From Saccostrea echinata (lineage: Eukaryota): a DNA stretch of 64,000 bases. Below, one piece after another: positions 54,024 to 64,000 of this stretch. The notes under the pieces were generated by a model that did no database searches, was not told the DNA's origin, and saw only the letters and a list, made by a program, of their open reading frames with translations. The translations under genes and the position numbers were made by a program. Within the stretch, counting starts at the first letter, position 1. Every line of letters starts with the position of its first letter. The stretch lies in contig NW_026889825.1 of assembly GCF_033153115.1 (NCBI RefSeq), positions 1,798,001-1,862,000 of the forward strand, written 5' to 3'.

Positions 54024-54713
54024 NNNNNNNNNNNNNNNNNNNNNNNNNNNNNNNNNNNNNNNNNNNNNNNNNNNNNNNNNNNNNNNNNNNNNNNNNNNNN
54101 NNNNNNNNNNNNNNNNNNNNNNNNNNNNNNNNNNNNNNNNNNNNNNNNNNNNNNNNNNNNNNNNNNNNNNNNNNNNNNNNNNNNNNNNNNNNNNNNNNNN
54201 CCTATGATTCTTTACAAAATAGATTACAGTTCATTTTCTCATGAACTACCATGGATGAGCATGAATATCTCTGTAATGGTGGATGATTTATAGTATCTAT
54301 ATATGTTATTAAATCTTTGTTATTTATTACAATGTATCTAGTCACGTATTAAAATGAATAATTATTGTAATATTGTGTTGTGTAACATTATACTATTATT
54401 ATTATACTACATTTAATGTCGGGTTCGTTGCCGACTTTGCGCGTGTGTCAGGCCGTTCGGGACAACGTCTGGACGTCTGTTAACGGCCTGACCACCGTGA
54501 CGTTCGCAACGGCCAGATTAGATCAGTGCTAGACTGAGACAAGCTGCGAGTAGGTATCCACCATCCCCTAGACTTGTAATATTGTTAATTGTAACTTATT
54601 TATTTATTTATTTCATTTAATAAACCTTTGTTAACCTTTAAAAATGTGTTTCTCTCTGTAAATCACTGAATCTGGATTAACATGGAAACGTACAGGTTTC
54701 CCGTTACATTTTT

Positions 54714-54728
54714 TGGGGGCTCGTCCGG
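54714..54728 (+). promoter_or_regulatory. Primer-binding site, tRNA-Pro
   Basis: TGGGGGCTCGTCCGG is complementary to the tRNA-Pro 3' end. Confidence 0.85.
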
Positions 54729-54873: not shown

Positions 54874-56854
54874 ATGGCGTCAACACTTTTCAGTAATCTG
54901 TCCAACAAATTTAGGCAATGGTTTAGCTTTCATGAACCGGAAGCAAGGGCTAGTACTAGTGAAGAAAGGAGCGGATCTCACGGAAATAAAAATATTTCCA
55001 ACAAAACTCAGGTAATTCAAAATCAGCACAATTTCTGCGATGCGGACATAAGATCAGATAGACCTACATGTATTCAAAGACCAATTGTTGACAATGACAT
55101 ACCTGTTTCATGTTTCGTGGAAAATAAAGAAGTTCATGCTTCTTGTAATGTTAGGCCTAATGCTAGTGCACCATACCGACAAGAAAACCATGGGGTTTTT
55201 CAAACAAGTCTGGAAAACGGTCACAATGTAGGGTTTGAACGAAATGTTCAGAACAATTTTGACTCATATCTGAGTGATAACATGTCCAATCCATATGAAA
55301 AACTGTCACAAAATAGCTCAGCTTCTCAGCGTATTTTCAATCGAGGCGATCACGTGACACAAAACGGGTACTGGGGTACAGAAAGGGGAGATAAAAACGA
55401 CCCATATTACTCTGGTCGAACCAGGGGAAATTATTTTGCACATAGTACACCTATGACAAATATTGAAAATCGAAATGTGGTGTCGAATTGTGAAACAAAT
55501 AAAACCCCTCATCGGGAGGTTACAAACAAAATGCAATATTTTGAACCAGAAAATAAAATTGAAGATGAAAGAGAAAATTACTTTTTCTCAAGATGCGGTC
55601 AAGATAATGTCACTTCTCTATATCCGAGATGGTCAGATGGGGATCAAAGTTCATTGAATATACCCTTCCCCAAATGTTCACTACAGTTCAGGGTCGAGAG
55701 TAGAAAATGATTATTTCGCTGAAAATAAATACGGCGCGCAGTCGGTCTATCCATTAGACTCAGAGGTTCGAACACCTTACCGGAATTATTTTGATCGGAA
55801 TGATCAAATACCTCCTGTTAAACATTCTTTTGAACCAATGAAAAACATGCCCAACAATGTGAAAAATTTTCAGAATTCTGAATGTCGTTTGATAAATGAC
55901 AATTTTAGCAAACAAATGTTTCCAACAGGTGCACAAACGTTCGAATGCCCTGGTCAATTGAATGCAAATAATTACTTTCTAGATCAAAGACGTAGACAAA
56001 GAAAAGAAAAAGAACCCGATCTTTTTACCGGAGAAAACGTGGAATGGGCAGATTATATTTGCCATTTTGAACAGGTGTCACTTTGGAACAAATGGTCAGA
56101 AAGAGAAAAAGCAGCACAACTCGCAATGAGTTTACGAGGTGCTGCTCAGCGAATTCTCGGTGATCTGTCTCGTGACCAGTTAACAAATTACGAATCTCTA
56201 AAATCAGTTCTAACGCAAAGATTCAATCCCTTAGAGCGCGAGACTGCTTTCCGCTGCGAGTTCCGGAACCGGAAACGACTTTCAGGAGAGACAGCAGCTG
56301 ACTATGACTACTCCTTAAAAAGACTAGCTACTCGCGCATTTCCGACAATACCAGTTTCACTTCGTGAGAGTATTGTTATTGAACAGTACATTAACGGACT
56401 AGGTAGTCAAGAAATAAGAAGACATGTGCAATTTGCACACCCTACTACGTTAGACAGGGCTATATCTCTTGCCCTGGAATTCGAGGCATTTGAAGGAGTT
56501 CAAAGTAATACTCCTCGCAAACCAAAAGATACTGAAATTCAGTCTGTCCGAGCGCTGAAAGCAACAAACGAGTCTAATAATCTTGAAAATAAAAGACTTT
56601 CAGAGTTAGAAAAATCGCTTGCTCTGATGCAAAAATCTATTCAAAAATTAACAGAAAGAGAGAACCAAAATGGCAGAATAATTTCTCGCCGTACGCAAGA
56701 TGAAACTCGAAAGAAAATCGTCAAATGCTATAACTGTAACCAAACAGGTCACATTAGTAAATTTTGCCCAAAGTCATTAACACCCATACTTGCATCAAGT
56801 CCTAGAAAGGTTACATTTTCGGATTCTGTCTCAAAATCTGGTGATTTAAACTAA
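54874..56854 (+). CDS. gag: Gag of element A, split by one frameshift (between about 55658 and 55710)
   Basis: ORF 54874-55710, then an open frame from about 55658 into 55838-56854 with a capsid-like region (EPDLF.G..W.DY..HFE) and CCHC knuckle CYNCNQTGHISKFC. Confidence 0.85.
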
Positions 56855-56889
56855 GTGGGGCTGAGCTCGGGGCCAAAAGCCCAGCTCAC
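56845..56889 (+). promoter_or_regulatory. -1 ribosomal frameshift signal (slippery U_UUA_AAC plus downstream stem-loop)
   Basis: TTTAAAC in the gag frame just before TAA; -1 frame is open into pol; GTGGGGCTGAGCT pairs with AGCCCAGCTCAC. Confidence 0.78.
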
Positions 56890-59800
56890 AACGATTTAAC
56901 TACTGAAAATTTGACAAGGCCCTCTGTAAGGTTGTCGGCAATCTCTAAGAGTTGTTGGTTTTCTATTGTTGAGATTGGTGGTTTGAGCGCAAACATGCTC
57001 ATTGATACCGGCTCATCGGTGTCTCTGTTATCAAAGGAGATATATGAGACTTTGAGTTTCAGACCGATCTTAACAAAAGTAGCAGACAAGTTAACCACAG
57101 CTGACGATGAACCCCTGCGTGTTTGTGGGAAATCGAATTTCCCGCTCCGAATGAATGGAGTAAATTTTAATTACCCAATTATAATTGCAGAATTGGGTGA
57201 TCTTCATGGTATATTGGGATTAGATTTTTTGTCTGACAACGAAATGGTAGTGGATACTTGTAGAGGAATTTTGATGTCCTCGCACTTTCAAATTCAGTTA
57301 TGCAGGGAAAATAGTTTAAATCATACGTGTGCAAGAGTTCAGATTTCTGAAAATGTTCGAATACCACCTAGGTCTGAGATGTTTATTACTGGCAATGTCA
57401 AAGGTAATATTTCGGATGATGTGACGTGCATCTTAGAGCCAGATAGGGACCAGACAGGACATGATGTCCTCATACCTAAATCAATTGTCAACATCACAAA
57501 ATCATCTGTGGTGTTTTCTGTCCTTAATCCTACTGACAATGATATACATTTGAAAAAAAATAAATGCATAGCTAGTATACAAGCTGTAGATTGTATCATA
57601 GACAATGATGATTGCAAAGGTTCGGGAGTAGAAAATAAAGATATGTCTTTACAATCAAGTGTACCAGATCATTTGCAATCGCTGCTAGAAAATGTGTCAA
57701 ATAAACTTTTATCTGTTGAGAAAAACGAGTTGAAACATTTTGTTTTACAATATTCTGACGTTTTTTTCGGATCTGACGGAAACTTAGGCCGAACTGACCT
57801 CACTGCTCATAAAATTGACACAGGGGGCGCGAAACCGATTAAGCTACCCCCAAGACGACTTCCAATATCTCAGCGAGATGTTGCTGAGCACGAAATAGAA
57901 AATATGTTACAGAAAGGAGTAATAGAACCTAGTAATTCTCCATGGGCTTCGCCCATTGTTCTAGTAAAGAAAAAGGACGACTCAACGCGTTTTTGCGTTG
58001 ATTATCGGCGCTTAAATGCTGTCACTGTGAAAGACGCATATCCACTGCCTAGAGTGGATGAATCTTTTGATTCACTAGCCGGTGCCAAATATTTCTGCAC
58101 ACTCGACTTAGCCAGCGGATACTGGCAAGTGGTTATGCATCCCGATGATAGACAAAAGACAGCCTTTGCTAGTCATAAGGGATTATATGAATTTACGGTA
58201 ATGCCTTTCGGACTGTCAAATAGTCCGGCAACGTTCGAACGATTAATGGAGATTGTACTTTGCGGACTCCAGTGGGAGAAATGTCTAGTCTATTTAGACG
58301 ATGTCATTGTTTTTGGAAAAACTTTTCAAGAAACTTTAGAGAATTTAAGATCAGTTTTCGACCGATTTAGGAGCGCAAAGTTAAAACTGAAACCTAAGAA
58401 ATGCGTTCTTTTCAAAGACGAAGTGTCATTTCTCGGTCACGTAGTCTCAGCTAACGGCATTCAGTGTGATCCGACGAAAATTATCGCGATTAAGGAATGG
58501 CCGGTACCCGAAAACATTTCGGATGTTAGAAGTTTTCTGGGACTTGCGTCGTATTATCGTAAATTCATATACAATTTCTCATCAATCGCTTACCCTTTAA
58601 CAAGACTAACACAGAAAAATAAACCATTTGAATGGACCGCAGAAAGTGAAAATGCTTTCACTACTCTTAAAAAGTTACTGACAGATACCCCGATACTATC
58701 ATATCCTGACATCAAGGAAACGTTTATTCTTGATACCGAAGCTAGCGCATTTGGCGTTGGTGCAGTCTTATCGCAGATACAAAACGGTCAAGAAAAGGTT
58801 ATAGCGTACGGAAGTAAAACACTGTCCAAATCTCAAAGCAAATACTGCACTACGTATCGCGAACTTCTGGCTGTTGTCATTTTCATTAAACACTTCAAGC
58901 ATTATCTTTATGGGAGACATTTTCTCCTACGCACCGACCATTCGTCTCTCCTTTGGCTGAAGAATTTTAAAGAACCGGAAGGGATGTTGGCCCGATGGCT
59001 TTCCTTTCTAGAGACGTACGATTTCGAGATTAAACATAGGAAAGGTTCTCTGCATGGAAATGCAGACGGTTTATCTAGACGCCCCTCGCGCCGATGTAAG
59101 AGATTTGACTGTAACCAATGTTACGGTACCTTGCCAAGCAGCAAAGACAATATCTCAGAGGAGTCAGATAGGCAAAACAATGCCTGTATCGAAACCAACC
59201 AAACAGTATCAGCAGTCACAAATAAACAAAACCAGAAAAATAAAAATGATCAAACATTGTTAAGTTCAAATTGGTTAGGTATTGATGTAGATATTGAACG
59301 TTTACAGTCAGAGGATGATACAATAAAAACAGTAAGAGATTTCTTGCTTGCGTCAAATGAACGTCCTAGATTAGCAACTTCAGACAAAGAACTTGATTTT
59401 CTGTTAAAGCAATGGTGGGTACTTGAGGTTAAAAATAATATCCTTTACGGAAAATGGGAGAATGAGGACAGGTCCATTACTTTGCAATTAGTTGTTCCGA
59501 AGTCAATTAGAAAAGAAATCATGATTCAGTTGCACAACAGTAGACTTGCTGGTCATCTGGGCCACGAGAAAACCCTAAAGAAAATTCGATCGCGATTTTA
59601 CTGGCCTGGTATGTCCACGGATATTCGTAGATGGTGCCAAAACTGTATGTTTTGCCAGAAACGGAAACCAGGCCCGGGGGTGGGAAAATCTCCAATGAAA
59701 CATGTAGATGTTTCAGCGCCTTTAGATGCTATTGCCATTGACATCATGGGTCCTCTACCTATTACGGAAAATGGAAATCAGTACATAATGGTCGTTGGTG

Positions 59801-60702
59801 ACTATTTCAGCAAATGGACCGAGGCATATGCATTGCCTGTACACACAGCTCAATCTGTAGCTGACAAATTAGTAACCGAGTTCATTTGCCGATTTGGTAC
59901 ACCTCTGCGTATCCATACAGATCAGGGACGCGAATTCGAATCCAACTTATTTTCAAAATTACGTCAGCTTTTAGAAATTGATAAGTCCCGTACTACACCG
60001 TACAGACCCCAATCTGACGGCATGATAGAAAGATTTAATAGAACTTTACAGCAAATGTTATCTATGTTTGTCAATGAAAATCAAAATGATTGGGATGATC
60101 ATCTCCCATATTTAACAATGGCATATAGAGCATCTGTACAAGAGAGCACAAAGTGTACCCCAAACAGAATAATGTTAGGAAGGGAAATTTCAGTTCCTAT
60201 TGATATTATGGTGGGATCACCATTAGATATACATAGATCCCCGTGCCCTGTTCTGTATGTAGACTGGATAGAAAAAGCTATGCAATTAGCTTTTGAGTTT
60301 GCACATGACAACCTACAATGTAGTTTTCAAAAACAAAAACACTATTATGACATGAAAACGAAACCTAGACAATTTGAAGTAGGTACTTTGGTACTACGTT
60401 GGTATCCACCAACTGGAAAACAAAAATTAGACTTAGGATGGACGGGTCCTTACGAAATTGTAAGGAAACTATCTGATATTACAGTTGAAATAAGAGACTG
60501 TAAAAGTTCTAAACTCAAAATTGTTCATATTGATCATCTTAAATTGTTCAAAATAAATGAAACAGAATCTCAGAGTGAATATTCTCAGTTGTATTCGGAC
60601 AAAAACTCTGTATCTGATGACAGTGTTGAAGACATGATAGAAAAGCAGTGTTTCACAAGAGCAGGAAGACTTGTAAAACCCCCGTCCAGATTTTCCCCAT
60701 AA
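56848..60702 (+). CDS. pol: Pol of element A (protease, RT, RNase H, integrase)
   Basis: LIDTGS, SPWASP, YLDD, DTEAS, HHCC, DIMGP/TDQG/IERFN, WTGPY. Confidence 0.95.
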   Translation, partial: KLSGAELGAKSPAHNDLTTENLTRPSVRLSAISKSCWFSIVEIGGLSANMLIDTGSSVSLLSKEIYETLSFRPILTKVADKLTTADDEPLRVCGKSNFPLRMNGVNFNYPIIIAELGDLHGILGLDFLSDNEMVVDTCRGILMSSHFQIQLCRENSLNHTCARVQISENVRIPPRSEMFITGNVKGNISDDVTCILEPDRDQTGHDVLIPKSIVNITKSSVVFSVLNPTDNDIHLKKNKCIASIQAVDCIIDNDDCKGSGVENKDMSLQSSVPDHLQSLLENVSNKLLSVEKNELKHFVLQYSDVFFGSDGNLGRTDLTAHKIDTGGAKPIKLPPRRLPISQRDVAEHEIENMLQKGVIEPSNSPWASPIVLVKKKDDSTRFCVDYRRLNAVTVKDAYPLPRVDESFDSLAGAKYFCTLDLASGYWQVVMHPDDRQKTAFASHKGLYEFTVMPFGLSNSPATFERLMEIVLCGLQWEKCLVYLDDVIVFGKTFQETLENLRSVFDRFRSAKLKLKPKKCVLFKDEVSFLGHVVSANGIQCDPTKIIAIKEWPVPENISDVRSFLGLASYYRKFIYNFSSIAYPLTRLTQKNKPFEWTAESENAFTTLKKLLTDTPILSYPDIKETFILDTEASAFGVGAVLSQIQNGQEKVIAYGSKTLSKSQSKYCTTYRELLAVVIFIKHFKHYLYGRHFLLRTDHSSLLWLKNFKEPEGMLARWLSFLETYDFEIKHRKGSLHGNADGLSRRPSRRCKRFDCNQCYGTLPSSKDNISEESDRQNNACIETNQTVSAVTNKQNQKNKNDQTLLSSNWLGIDVDIERLQSEDDTIKTVRDFLLASNERPRLATSDKELDFLLKQWWVLEVKNNILYGKWENEDRSITLQLVVPKSIRKEIMIQLHNSRLAGHLGHEKTLKKIRSRFYWPGMSTDIRRWCQNCMFCQKRKPGPGVGKSPMKHVDVSAPLDAIAIDIMGPLPITENGNQYIMVVGDYFSKWTEAYALPVHTAQSVADKLVTEFICRFGTPLRIHTDQGREFESNLFSKLRQLLEIDKSRTTPYRPQSDGMIERFNRTLQQMLSMFVNENQNDWDDHLPYLTMAYRASVQESTKCTPNRIMLGREISVPIDIMVGSPLDIHRSPCPVLYVDWIEKAMQLAFEFAHDNLQCSFQKQKHYYDMKTKPRQFEVGTLVLRWYPPTGKQKLDLGWTGPYEIVRKLSDITVEIRDCKSSKLKIVHIDHLKLFKINETESQSEYSQLYSDKNSVSDDSVEDMIEKQCFTRAGRLVKPPSRFSP

Positions 60703-60787
60703 ATAAGCATTTTTTTTAAGAAGGGAGGGGGGGGTATGTCTGTGTTATAAATAGTTTATAGTATTTCTTTTTATTTTATTTTAAAGG

Positions 60788-61693
60788 ATGGACTTTGAAG
60801 ATTTTACTTTAGATCTCCTGGTGGATGATAAAGAAATGGACTTCTTAGAAGACGCCCCTGTCTTTGCACCTCTAAGTTCTGAGACATCAAAGAACATTGA
60901 GTTCTTTTTCTCATCTGACATGACTTGTCCTGTGGATGGATGTCCTCCAGCACTGACTTTCAATACAAAGGCCAAATTTCAACGACACTGGATGGAGAAG
61001 CATCTCCCAGAGGTCATATCCTATTCATGCCCAGTAGTCAACTGCAAGGTCGCCTGCCGTAGACGGTATGATATGAAAGTTCATCTACTTCGCGTCCATG
61101 GGACCAGCAAAGGATTTGTGGAAAGTATTCTTTCCAAGAGTCAGAAAACATCAAGACCCAATGCATCTTTCATTCATCCTGGAAGTTACACATTCTACGG
61201 CAGGACCAGACCACCTGTGGCTAAGGATGCTCTTCCTCCAGTGCCGTTGACTTCTACATCTGTGCCTGTGGCCTTATCCTCCTCTCCTGTGGTGCCTGAT
61301 GAGGTTCCCCTTTCCGTTTCTGATGTGTTGGAACCACCTACCAAGAAGACCCTCACAGTTCAGGAGTACTTCTCTCGACCAGTGTCCTCGATTCTGCGAC
61401 CTCTCCATGTTTCTACCCAGACCAGGTGCCAGGATTTCCCTCCTTTTTCTCTTCCTGACGTCCCTGAGACGCAAGAAGAAATCCTAGCTTACATTCATTG
61501 GTTAGACAGCCTTTTCAACTCTATCAATCTCAAGAGGAAAACGGTCGAGGAAAAACTTGCGTGTTTGAAGACTACTTCCTCTGAACTTCTCGTGGAAAGG
61601 GAGAAAAGACGCAAACTGGAGGCCGAGAACCTGCGCCTGCGGAAGGAACTGGCGGACCTCAAAGCTGTTAATCTTTTGTTTCCTGAACTGTGA
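60788..61693 (+). CDS. ORF3 of element A: acidic N-terminus, two C2H2-like zinc fingers, Pro/Ser-rich linker, C-terminal coiled coil
   Basis: 301-aa uninterrupted ORF between pol and PPT; C-x4-C-x14-H-x4-H and C-x4-C-x12-H-x4-H; polypyrimidine tract and AG directly before the ATG. Confidence 0.8.
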   Translation: MDFEDFTLDLLVDDKEMDFLEDAPVFAPLSSETSKNIEFFFSSDMTCPVDGCPPALTFNTKAKFQRHWMEKHLPEVISYSCPVVNCKVACRRRYDMKVHLLRVHGTSKGFVESILSKSQKTSRPNASFIHPGSYTFYGRTRPPVAKDALPPVPLTSTSVPVALSSSPVVPDEVPLSVSDVLEPPTKKTLTVQEYFSRPVSSILRPLHVSTQTRCQDFPPFSLPDVPETQEEILAYIHWLDSLFNSINLKRKTVEEKLACLKTTSSELLVEREKRRKLEAENLRLRKELADLKAVNLLFPEL

Positions 61694-62228
61694 GGTATTG
61701 TTTCTTTCCATCATCCTTTCATCTGTGCTTGTGATTTAGAGACTGTATCTGGTGATCTGTAACTTGCAGATTTGTTTTGTAAACTGTAATTGTAATGAAA
61801 TAATTTCAAATCCTTTGTATTATAATGATACATGTACATGTTTTATATTATGTATAATATGGACTGTTAATTGAATTTCGAATATTCTTTGTTGCCAAAT
61901 ATGATGTTGTTACATATTGTTATGTATTGCAATGAATGCTTATAGCTGTTATAAAAAATTACTATCTTTATACTTATGTACTTGACTAATGTATGTGTCG
62001 CATACATTAGGTCTTAAGAAGGGGAGAGTGTAATGGTGGATGATTTATAGTATCTATATATGTTATTAAATCTTTGTTATTTATTACAATGTATCTAGTC
62101 ACGTATTAAAATGAATAATTATTGTAATATTGTGTTGTGTAACATTATACTATTATTATATTATTATTATACTACATTTAATGTCGGGTTCGTTGCCGAC
62201 TTTGCGCGTGTGTCAGGCCGTTCGGGAC

Positions 62229-64000
62229 TGTGATGTATTCCGGATCTATTGTATCTTTGGTTTGTATATTAGAATGTACTGCACATGCGCATTCAATAAA
62301 AGTTAGTTCCGTTATGGCTGACCCACGTGTTAGTGTGATGATTTGAACAACACAACATTTTGGCGACGAGGATGCTGGTTTAGAGTCGGCAAACATACAG
62401 ATTGATACAAAATGGGTGAAGAAGGAAACGCTCAACAACTGATAGGCTTACAGGTCAGATCAATCGGTAAGATTGGATCATACGATGAATCAATCGAGAC
62501 ATGGGATGTCTACACAGAACGTGTTGATCTTTACTTTAAAGCTAACGGGGTGTCTGAAGACTTATTAGTGCCGTCATTCTTAGCAGTAATAGGACCTAAA
62601 ACGTACGGGTTACTAAAGAACATTGTTGCACCTACTAAACCTGCAGATCTCACGTACCAACAAATTCTTGGACATTTGAATAGACATCTTTGCCCCAAGC
62701 CTTCTGTTATTGCGGAGCGCTTTAGATTTCACAAACGTGAACAACGGTCAAGTGAAACTGTGCTTTCATACGTGGCGGAACTCAGAAAATTGTCAATTCA
62801 TTGTAACTTTGGAGAGACTCTCAATGACACTATAAGAGACCGATTCGTGTGTGGTATTAACAGTGAATCTGTCCAGAAGAAACTACTTGCTGAACCAGCA
62901 CTAACCCTGGATACTGCAGTAAAAATTGCACATGCAATGGAGACAGCAGGACGTGATGCAACAGAGCTTCGTGAGCAGAGAAACACCAGTACTACAGTTC
63001 ACAAGGTGAATGGTAGTCAGAAATCAAAACCTCGTTTTTCTATGAAACCTCAGACACAAAAGCATATGCCAGCACCACAACAACGTTCACACAAACCATG
63101 TTGGAGATGTGGAGGTGAGCACAGTGTAACAAGCTGTAAACATGTAAACAGTACTTGTCGTTACTGTTCAAAGAAAGGCCACATTGAGAGGGCATGTTTA
63201 AAGAAAAAGAAGGACACAGAGAGAAGGACTGGAAAAAAAGTGAACTTCTTAAATGACAATGATGAACATGATGAACATCAGTTTGAACCTATGTTACATG
63301 TGCATACTGTTAATAACATGAACAAAGTTGACCCAATTATCCTCCAGCTGATGATCAAAGGACAACAAATTAACATGGAGCTAGATACTGGATCATCTGT
63401 ATCTATCATACCTGAGGCCTTTTATAAACAAAATCTCAGTGATGTACCACTTCAGAAGACCAGAATAAAACTCAGAACTTTTACTGGTGAGAATATTAGT
63501 CCTCTAGGCACAGTGCATGTACCGGTGACATTGAATCAGCAACAGGGAAACATGGACTTAATAGTAGTCAGACAGAATGGACCAGCACTCTTTGGTCGTG
63601 ATGGACTATCACAGTTTAAAGTGAACTGGCATGAAGTGAAAGTGTTGAAGCTACAATAGACCACACAGAAAACTGACACAATGTTAAAGAAAATTCTCGA
63701 CAGACATCAAGCTGTTTTTGGGTCAGAAATTGGAAGACTGGAAGGAATTAGAGGTACACTGTACCTGGAAGATAATGCTCAACCAAAATTCTGTAAGGCT
63801 AGACCCGTGCCTTATTCCCTGAAGCCAGAAGTGGAGGAAGAACTCAAGCGCCTGGAGAAGGAGGGCATCATCAAGTCAGTTACCCACAGTAAATGGGCCT
63901 CACCTGTTGTCCCTGTAGTGAAGAAAAATGGTCAAGTACGTCTATGTGGAGACTACAAGGTAACCATAAATCCAGTAATGAAGGTGGACCAGTATCCTTT
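62229..64000 (+). mobile_element. Gypsy LTR retrotransposon B (Mag-like) nested in the 3' LTR of element A; runs off the window
   Basis: 129-bp LTR TGTGATG...CACAACA (62229-62357); PBS TGGCGACGAGGATG (tRNA-Ser-like) at 62361. Confidence 0.9.
62412..64000 (+). CDS. Gag-pol of element B (gag, two Zn knuckles, protease, RT start) with an in-frame TAG at 63657-63659
   Basis: CWRCGGEH..C and CRYCSKKGH..C, ELDTGS; same frame continues after TAG with KARPVPY, SKWASPVVPV.KKNG.VRLCGDYK. Confidence 0.88.

Follow-up and report, generated by a model that had tools for sequence, protein, structure and literature searches.

The open reading frame that follows pol in the Ty3/Gypsy element described here is an accessory gene conserved throughout a large Gypsy lineage of molluscs. 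We analysed a stretch of 64,000 nt of Saccostrea echinata DNA (the window), in which this frame, ORF3, encodes a protein of 301 aa with a pair of C2H2-like zinc fingers. Between families ORF3 is under purifying selection, and in at least one of them, family B, its mRNA is made by splicing from a donor in the LTR, with gag and pol skipped. By analogy with Rev and CERV, the protein may be a nuclear regulator of RNA fate that frees unspliced genomic RNA for export, a reading to which we give a probability of about 0.45.

The element spans from position 54272 to beyond the end of the window and shows every mark of a Ty3/Gypsy LTR retrotransposon: LTRs with a target-site duplication (TSD), a primer-binding site, a polypurine tract (PPT), gag, and pol in the order PR-RT-RH-IN. 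The parts of the element listed below lie on the plus strand of the window. The 5-bp duplication ATCTC (54267..54271; its partner is outside the window, after L050:5128) is followed by a 5' LTR of 437 bp with TG...CA ends (54272..54708) and by the primer-binding site TGGGGGCTCGTCCGG (54714..54728), presumably of the tRNA-Pro type. The LTR holds a poly(A) signal AATAAA with its cleavage site (54619..54644). The gag gene (54874..56854), with capsid and zinc knuckle, is broken in this copy by a frameshift near 55.66 kb; pol (56845..60702; PR, RT, RNase H, IN) is open over 1285 codons, and a slippery-type heptamer TTTAAAC (56845-56851) lies within the gag/pol overlap. A weak dUTPase-like region (57340-57600, E 0.038) was seen between protease and RT. 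Just past the pol stop stands an inner PPT-like purine tract (60718..60734), present in family B too, and the PPT itself is at 62016..62028.

The first part of the 3' LTR (62029..62228) is broken at 62229 by a nested, unrelated Gypsy element (62229..64000; RT 39% identical, TSD GGGAC) that is outside the ORF3 system; the remainder is at L050:4879-5128. Compared to the 5' LTR, the two halves have 1 mismatch and one 8-nt indel, so the insertion, flanked by its ATCTC duplication, is young, as the preliminary description had held. Elsewhere in the window (45233-49624) we observed a ~1.7-kb inverted repeat (99%) of RT-bearing sequence with (TA)n flanks and a weak RVT_1 match, which we take to be Penelope-like.

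ORF3 (60788..61693; ATG 60788-60790, stop 61691-61693) starts 86 nt past the pol stop, upstream of the PPT and the 3' LTR. The preliminary description had placed the feature at 60740..61693; the 301-aa frame between pol and the PPT/3' LTR was correct, but position 60740 is in non-coding sequence. The acidic-hydrophobic N-terminus that had been described is MDFEDFTLDLLVDD, with a net charge of -11 over aa 1-45. The motif (60788..60862) is disordered in the structure model, and an acidic N-terminus is common to all ORF3 families. The region of the fingers, on the other side, has a net charge of +10.

The two fingers, their flanking strands and an N-x(2-3)-F-I-x-P-G element form one compact domain (60893..61207). 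The Pfam zf-C2H2 match is weak (E 0.0013, below the cut-off). Still, the ligands follow the C-x2-4-C...H-x3-5-H spacing with a beta-beta-alpha fold, so that the tandem C2H2-like fingers read from the letters hold up, and the eight Cys/His ligands are 90-100% conserved among 74 homologues. In the full-length model the N-terminus and the linker are disordered, residues 41-133 are folded and residues 229-297 form a helix. When residues 30-145 were modelled with the 74 homologues, a single domain was predicted with pLDDT 94 and pTM 0.77; its 105 residues would comprise the finger pair plus an extra helix and strands. The nearest structures to the fingers were tandem C2H2 pairs, those of Tramtrack (2drp) and CTCF. 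The best fold match was DNA-bound Tramtrack (rmsd 1.9 over 51 columns, prob 0.99, E 0.055), the ORF3 profile matched CTCF at E 6e-8, and the best VIA Z was 5.1. No fold match reached E<=0.001 or Z>=8, which indicates neither novelty nor its absence. No Pfam family matched more than 10 of the 74 homologues, which leaves the finger module without a named family, and the TGEKP linkers that mark Kruppel-type fingers were found neither in ORF3 nor in any of the long homologues (0 of 38).

The linker is of the Pro/Ser/Val type, as proposed (60% P/S/V/T), and the C-terminal coiled coil corresponds in the model to a long predicted helix (61472..61678, aa 229-297). Ahead of this helix is a TQT sequence of the LC8 type (61415..61423). 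Among 19 long type-I proteins, 14 have a TQT core before the helix, compared to 4.0 in shuffles (max 10); among 8 type-II proteins, 7 have a TQT core, compared to 1.2 in shuffles (max 5). The core agrees with the LC8 motif definition [T/V/I]-Q-[T/V] given in the available text of PMC3078936. By its sequence pattern ORF3 thus resembles an LC8 client, with TQT in a disordered stretch beside a predicted coiled coil, and an LC8 protein was found in the host.

The maximal 19-residue hydropathy of the window ORF3 is 0.98, so the protein has no TM helix; in the 13 family representatives this maximum varied from 0.11 to 1.07. Neither a signal peptide, a fusion peptide, a TM anchor nor an env Pfam match was found in ORF3 (hydropathy in the 13 representatives). 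Its position and spliced mRNA are env-like, but with no TM helix, signal-like stretch or env match the product is not env, in agreement with the preliminary description.

A search of the species' own genome with the window ORF3 gave 53 matches among 88 candidates. We observed that 17 of the 19 strong loci had pol directly upstream (one had gag only and one neither). The 20 weak loci all matched the profile, and 15 of them had pol upstream, at 43-65% identity. Trees of RT and integrase, built from own-genome copies only, sort the ORF3-bearing elements into about ten families. From an integrase search (131 scored matches) we fetched 20 unexamined in-clade and 20 more distant matches; as these were chosen by integrase, the sampling is independent of ORF3. 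A finger ORF was present in 16 of the 20 in-clade copies, and the four copies without it adjoin near-identical copies that bear it, so a general lack of ORF3 in sister copies is not what we found. Two deletion derivatives (L047, L063) were seen, one keeping gag and ORF3 without pol and one having lost the pol end and ORF3.

Families A (that of the window) and B are near-identical from the pol end to ORF3 codon 53 (window 60300-60945 and L034) and saturated elsewhere. This tract is the product of a recent recombination that split ORF3 inside finger 1. In family D (L040, L044) the reading frame of ORF3 begins right at the AG of the acceptor and lacks an ATG at the homologous start, where an Ostrea edulis homologue (P0018 cluster) has Met; a search for an upstream exon that would donate the ATG to family D identified no donor.

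The distant integrase matches showed a variation on the same arrangement, with 16 of the 20 carrying a different zinc-finger ORF in the same slot, one a type-I remnant and three none. For one sister clade, with integrase 43-46% identical to that of the window (L150-L154, L156, L161, L162, L165, L167), ORF3 is ~200-240 aa long with a basic start, C2HC and C2H2 fingers, an acidic WLxQDPG and TQT, and a pyrimidine tract with AG ahead. In four loci (L160:2099-3382(-), L163, L164:1275-2030 and L168) the fingers are fused to a KCTD-type BTB/POZ domain, with Pfam BTB_2 above the cut-off in 4/4 (E 1e-14 to 1e-18). Two others (L157:960-2876(-), L166:1071-2774(-)) have a long ORF3 of 568-639 aa with N-terminal fingers, and its conserved middle and C-terminal blocks had no Pfam match. 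The fingers of L157, L160, L163 and L164 were assigned by eye. At L158:3338-3940 (element orientation) a 201-aa ORF past pol is unrelated to the finger types. All 12 sister-clade ORF3 starts inspected had, as judged by eye, a T-rich tract and AG within ~25 nt upstream.

Selection was estimated from Nei-Gojobori counts, with families A and B compared outside their shared tract. For this pair the ORF3 dN/dS was 0.15, with dS near saturation, and pN/pS was 0.44 (95% 0.36-0.53); by part, pN/pS was 0.34 in the fingers, 0.31 in the C-terminus and 0.80 (0.63-1.01) in the linker. The pol genes of A and B gave a dN/dS of 0.16. Other ORF3 comparisons were similar, with 0.20 for L081 and L088, 0.17 for L040 and L044, and 0.19 for L081 and L084; one more pair, L087 and L089, gave 0.50 with an interval that spans 1. 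Values of 0.15-0.20 between families do not fit the neutral decay that the preliminary description had named as a possible outcome. Within family A, the window copy gave 0.64 against L031 and 1.28 against L032, each value resting on 2 synonymous changes.

Directly before the ORF3 ATG is a polypyrimidine tract with a splice acceptor (60763..60787; AG at 60785-60786, exon start 60787), which reads ...TTTTAAAG|GATG. The acceptor had been described as strong, and it is the starting point of two RNA contigs. In 10 of 13 family representatives, compared to 42 of 359 control ATGs, the start is preceded at 0-8 nt by an AG and its pyrimidine tract, under a rule that was defined after the sites had been seen. 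The RNA data came from six runs, all as assembled contigs; in run X3 a poly(A) tail behind 54644 indicates that this study holds RNA, and a contig of this run crosses the ORF3 acceptor unspliced.

Runs X1 and X4 each had one contig that starts at 60785 with a loose end. The loose end in X4 is the LTR of family B, that in X1 is a single-copy host exon, and both precede AG|GT in the genome; hence two different donors meet the predicted acceptor, which is what the proposed check for junction reads at 60787 had looked for. These junctions come from one sample, have a donor side of 29-30 letters, below the 31-letter bridge rule, and for the LTR junction a depth of 4. Downstream of the junction the X4 contig reads as family A, so that it may stem from a hybrid copy or from a chimeric assembly across the shared tract. 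In the alignment, the donor used in family B falls at most a few bases from AG|GTATCC at 54553/54554 of the window. This candidate (54552..54559; the intron would start at 54554) is the sole AG|GTR in the LTR, and had been proposed at about 54553. It exists and is the counterpart of a used donor, but the family-A LTR donor joined to the ORF3 acceptor was not seen in the six runs. The second proposed donor, GAG|GTATTT at about 54823, was discarded as it has no counterpart in family B. The independent-study runs X5 and X6 cover most of the element with a related family (about 88-92%), with no LTR-to-ORF3 joint among the matches listed.

The deepest ORF3 contig (X1, depth 112) starts from the host exon, which lies in another reading frame than ORF3, and equals copy L031 at 6 of 7 variants; it says nothing on expression of the window copy. 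The host exon is a single-copy coiled-coil exon (L051 / G000:C9:37684456-37684483 (-)). No element copy is present within 30 kb downstream of it in the assembly, and therefore the splice likely reflects a polymorphic intronic insertion that acts as a gene trap. The strong ORF3 acceptor thus also traps host exons. A 34-nt skip at 61721-61754 in RNA contigs was considered as an intron and rejected: its AT..TG ends and a 6-nt repeat point to a deletion in the expressed copy.

The closest named homologues of ORF3 are in Crassostrea angulata and Magallana gigas (61-64% over the C-terminal third). A profile search gave 462 proteins at E<=0.001, of which 150 were listed. Among the matches listed, Ostrea edulis and, in multiple copies, Mytilus have single-domain ORF3-like proteins whose annotation is 'uncharacterised'; metagenome scans for the genomic context of the homologues yielded nothing. 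Long mollusc host proteins carry the finger module many times over. For example, P0016, P0017, P0040, P0072, P0087, P0114 and P0120 (including proteins of Sinanodonta, Gigantopelta and Haliotis) have from several to ~20 module repeats along with RRM, G-patch/DUF7819, RS-rich or P-loop parts. No Pfam family covered the module in these repeat-bearing proteins. One more protein, P0118, joins the module to a LINE-type exonuclease/endonuclease/phosphatase domain and may be a prediction chimera.

RNA-processing marks were present in 12 of the 38 listed matches of at least 430 aa, two of them near duplicates, and absent from 26. The marks were RRM (3), G-patch (1), RS-rich (5), P-loop start (3) and a DEIG motif (1); the P-loop start is presumably of the YLPM1/N4BP2 type, and the DEIG motif we take to be of the matrin type. 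Within the S. echinata genome no host multi-repeat gene was found, as a host-protein query matched element ORF3s only (17/17). A resemblance by eye between C-termini of RRM host proteins and the ORF3 helix was dropped, as it gave no profile match at E<10. The tree of finger domains is poorly resolved and gives no direction of transfer between host and element. A host origin of the module is plausible, as an ancient event and not as the recent capture of a host exon that had been considered.

Some homologues have an N-terminus of a particular kind, with [LVI]LDY[DEN]E in 10 of 50 (shuffle max 1), in two of them as ELLDY. The proteins with these LDY-type N-termini (e.g. LLDYEE) fall into a single subclade (SH-aLRT 96) within the element ORF3s; other N-terminal motifs were LxL[MHYF]A[DE] in 14 of 50 and EEGE[IL] in 2 proteins. 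The LDY pattern matches residues E9, L10, L11, D12 and Y13 of UAP56. According to the available parts of two papers, these residues bind TREX-2 and favour export (PMC12823420), and TREX-2-like complexes are bound by this N-terminal domain as well (PMC13391367). The window ORF3, with DLLVDD, lacks the Tyr. The N-terminal peptide of P0019, a query too short for such a search, had no UAP56 match among PDB sequences.

We prefer the Rev/CERV-like reading because of the RNA-processing company of the finger module and the UAP56-like motif in homologues. Early on, splicing between the LTR donor and the strong acceptor would by default yield ORF3 mRNA, and full-length RNA would therefore need help. The ORF3 protein would be a nuclear dimer whose head binds nucleic acid and whose tail docks to the host: the finger domain may bind RNA of the element itself or, at the locus, the transcript as it is made; LC8, through the TQT motif and the long helix, would dimerise the protein; and the acidic N-terminal motif may dock a host factor of RNA packaging or export. 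Once accumulated, the protein would switch the output to full-length RNA that escapes splicing or retention. Several observations weigh against this: DLLVDD lacks the Tyr, the LDY type is confined to a single subclade, the protein (P0001) has no NES match, 26 of the 38 long matches bear no RNA-processing mark, the fingers superpose on DNA-bound pairs, this genome has no host multi-repeat gene, and simple env-bearing elements splice alike without a Rev.

The preliminary description had proposed a DNA-binding regulator or anti-silencing factor acting on the LTR. Its notion of a conserved, spliced, element-encoded non-env gene stands, but RNA processing or export is at least as strongly indicated as LTR DNA. 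In its present form, which we consider a close rival though on balance improbable, an ORF3 dimer would be a Tas/Tax-like transactivator or anti-silencing factor on a CpG-rich inverted repeat of the LTR, and the acidic N-terminus kept in all families would recruit the transcription machinery or block methylation. The repeat (54448..54491; GC-rich, arms GTCAGGCCGTT / AACGGCCTGAC) could be an RNA hairpin or a DNA palindrome, and in the family B LTR its arms are kept and its loop is replaced. CpG o/e is 1.0-1.44 in LTRs A-D compared to 0.42-0.96 in six other LTRs, and R(-1) and D(+3) of finger 2 and R(+6) of finger 1 are retained in families A-D. The DNA-bound Tramtrack and CTCF pairs that are the best structure matches, with the CTCF profile match, also suit such a role. 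The finger code predicts CGG as the site, but CGG is not above shuffles in LTRs A, B and C (p 0.34-0.75), and LTRs A-D have no common GC-rich 7-mer despite like recognition residues. As CGG is not enriched in LTRs A-C and is enriched in LTR J, whose fingers differ, it was rejected as support for DNA binding. Further, TGEKP linkers are absent, and the same fold binds RNA too (TFIIIA and WT1 are among the matches). ORF3 could instead be Tat-like, promoting elongation by binding the inverted repeat as a 5' hairpin in the nascent RNA. One RNA contig begins at 54444, 4 nt before the repeat (contigs cannot show a start site), and the z of the hairpin is -4.4 in A and -4.2 in B, each being the best of many windows. 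With no two-sided compensatory change seen by eye, and no equivalent hairpin in C, D and most other LTRs, this is very unlikely.

A role as a counter-defence adaptor is unlikely. In this reading a host silencing protein or complex would be the target of the fingers, and the C-terminal part would serve to oligomerise or to bring in a ubiquitin ligase. The reading draws on the BTB_2 domains fused to fingers in the sister clade (4/4 loci), as KCTD-type BTB domains bind Cullin-3 in many proteins, and on the short acidic motifs that differ among subclades, as host-targeting motifs do. The ORF3 type of the window, however, has no BTB, its finger domains are under strong purifying selection, no comparison made here pointed to positive selection, and the basic surface of the fingers suits nucleic acid. 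Finally, we regard it as highly improbable that ORF3 is a passenger, either an exon taken recently from the host or a relic in decay. The homologous modules in mollusc host proteins, the within-A dN/dS values and the 4 of 20 copies that lack ORF3 could be taken in that sense. Those values, however, reflect 2 synonymous changes, the lacking copies have near-identical ORF3-bearing neighbours, and the frame has stayed open in families whose pol is 43-77% identical and whose synonymous sites are saturated; the between-family dN/dS contradicts a passenger.

On a broader scale, and as a rather doubtful extension, a whole animal branch of Ty3/Gypsy might consist of 'complex' retroelements. Their env-slot zinc-finger regulator would have been repeatedly swapped or remodelled (finger pair with coiled coil; C2HC/C2H2; finger with BTB), with at least one lineage mimicking the UAP56 motif for TREX-2 docking. 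If true, TREX-2 docking of the unspliced genome would be an export route not described for retroelements in the literature searched. What we observe is a zinc-finger family that occupies the place of env in many element families of one mollusc genome, with relatives in oysters and mussels. ORF3 bears on the way in which unspliced RNA of LTR elements leaves the nucleus and evades silencing, and the recurrence of the module in mollusc host proteins, together with an acceptor that traps exons, gives it relevance to gene exchange between element and host.

Regulatory genes are regarded as a mark of complex retroviruses. The retroviral Rev/Rex/Rec and Tat/Tax/Tas proteins are, like ORF3, spliced regulators, and the NES pattern was not found in P0001; to our knowledge none of them uses a tandem C2H2 domain. 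The env genes of simple elements are spliced in the same way without a Rev. The CTCF ZF6-7 (2ct1) and Tramtrack (2drp) pairs share with ORF3 the tandem C2H2 geometry and the finger-2 helix pattern; ORF3 differs by the extra helix and strands of its 105-residue domain, and the best VIA Z is only 5.1.

An accessory family of zinc-finger ORF3s was not found as already described in the literature searched, where supplements or Repbase could hold a prior note. In their main text, surveys of mollusc and annelid elements take up neither ORFs nor zinc fingers (PMC6238403, PMC8556966). Non-env ORF3s as such are already known, by the available parts of the sources (PMC5408684, PMC8220671, PMC2774666, PMC11952523). 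Those of bdelloid rotifers are family-specific, placed after pol, spliced and in part coiled-coil, as in the window, but their types (GDSL, DEDDy, CC, TM, env) differ, and the available text mentions no zinc finger (PMC5408684). The sORF1/sORF2 of the Drosophila MDG1-group are likewise accessory genes of env-less Gypsy elements; according to the accessible text they are short and mostly upstream of gag, and sORF2 is a TM fusogen (PMC11952523). Errantivirus env shares the position and the subgenomic splicing with ORF3, which differs in having no TM or signal-like stretch; zinc is unmentioned in the available portion of the errantivirus survey (PMC13524379).

The one tested Ty3/Gypsy regulatory gene that we found in the literature searched, as far as the sources were available, is CERV of Cer1 in C. 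elegans. The accessible text reports that CERV is needed for export of unspliced RNA and, like ORF3, is a non-env ORF in the env position with a spliced mRNA (PMC10309623). By the same text CERV differs in its 517 aa, its G, M and C-terminal domains, a ring-forming M and a proposed C4 finger (PMC10309623), compared to the C2H2 pair, disorder and long helix in the model of ORF3. The two are thus likened by their working and not by sequence; with its own nuclear location, multimerisation and Cys-rich loop, as given in that text, CERV is the best working analogy for ORF3 (PMC10309623).
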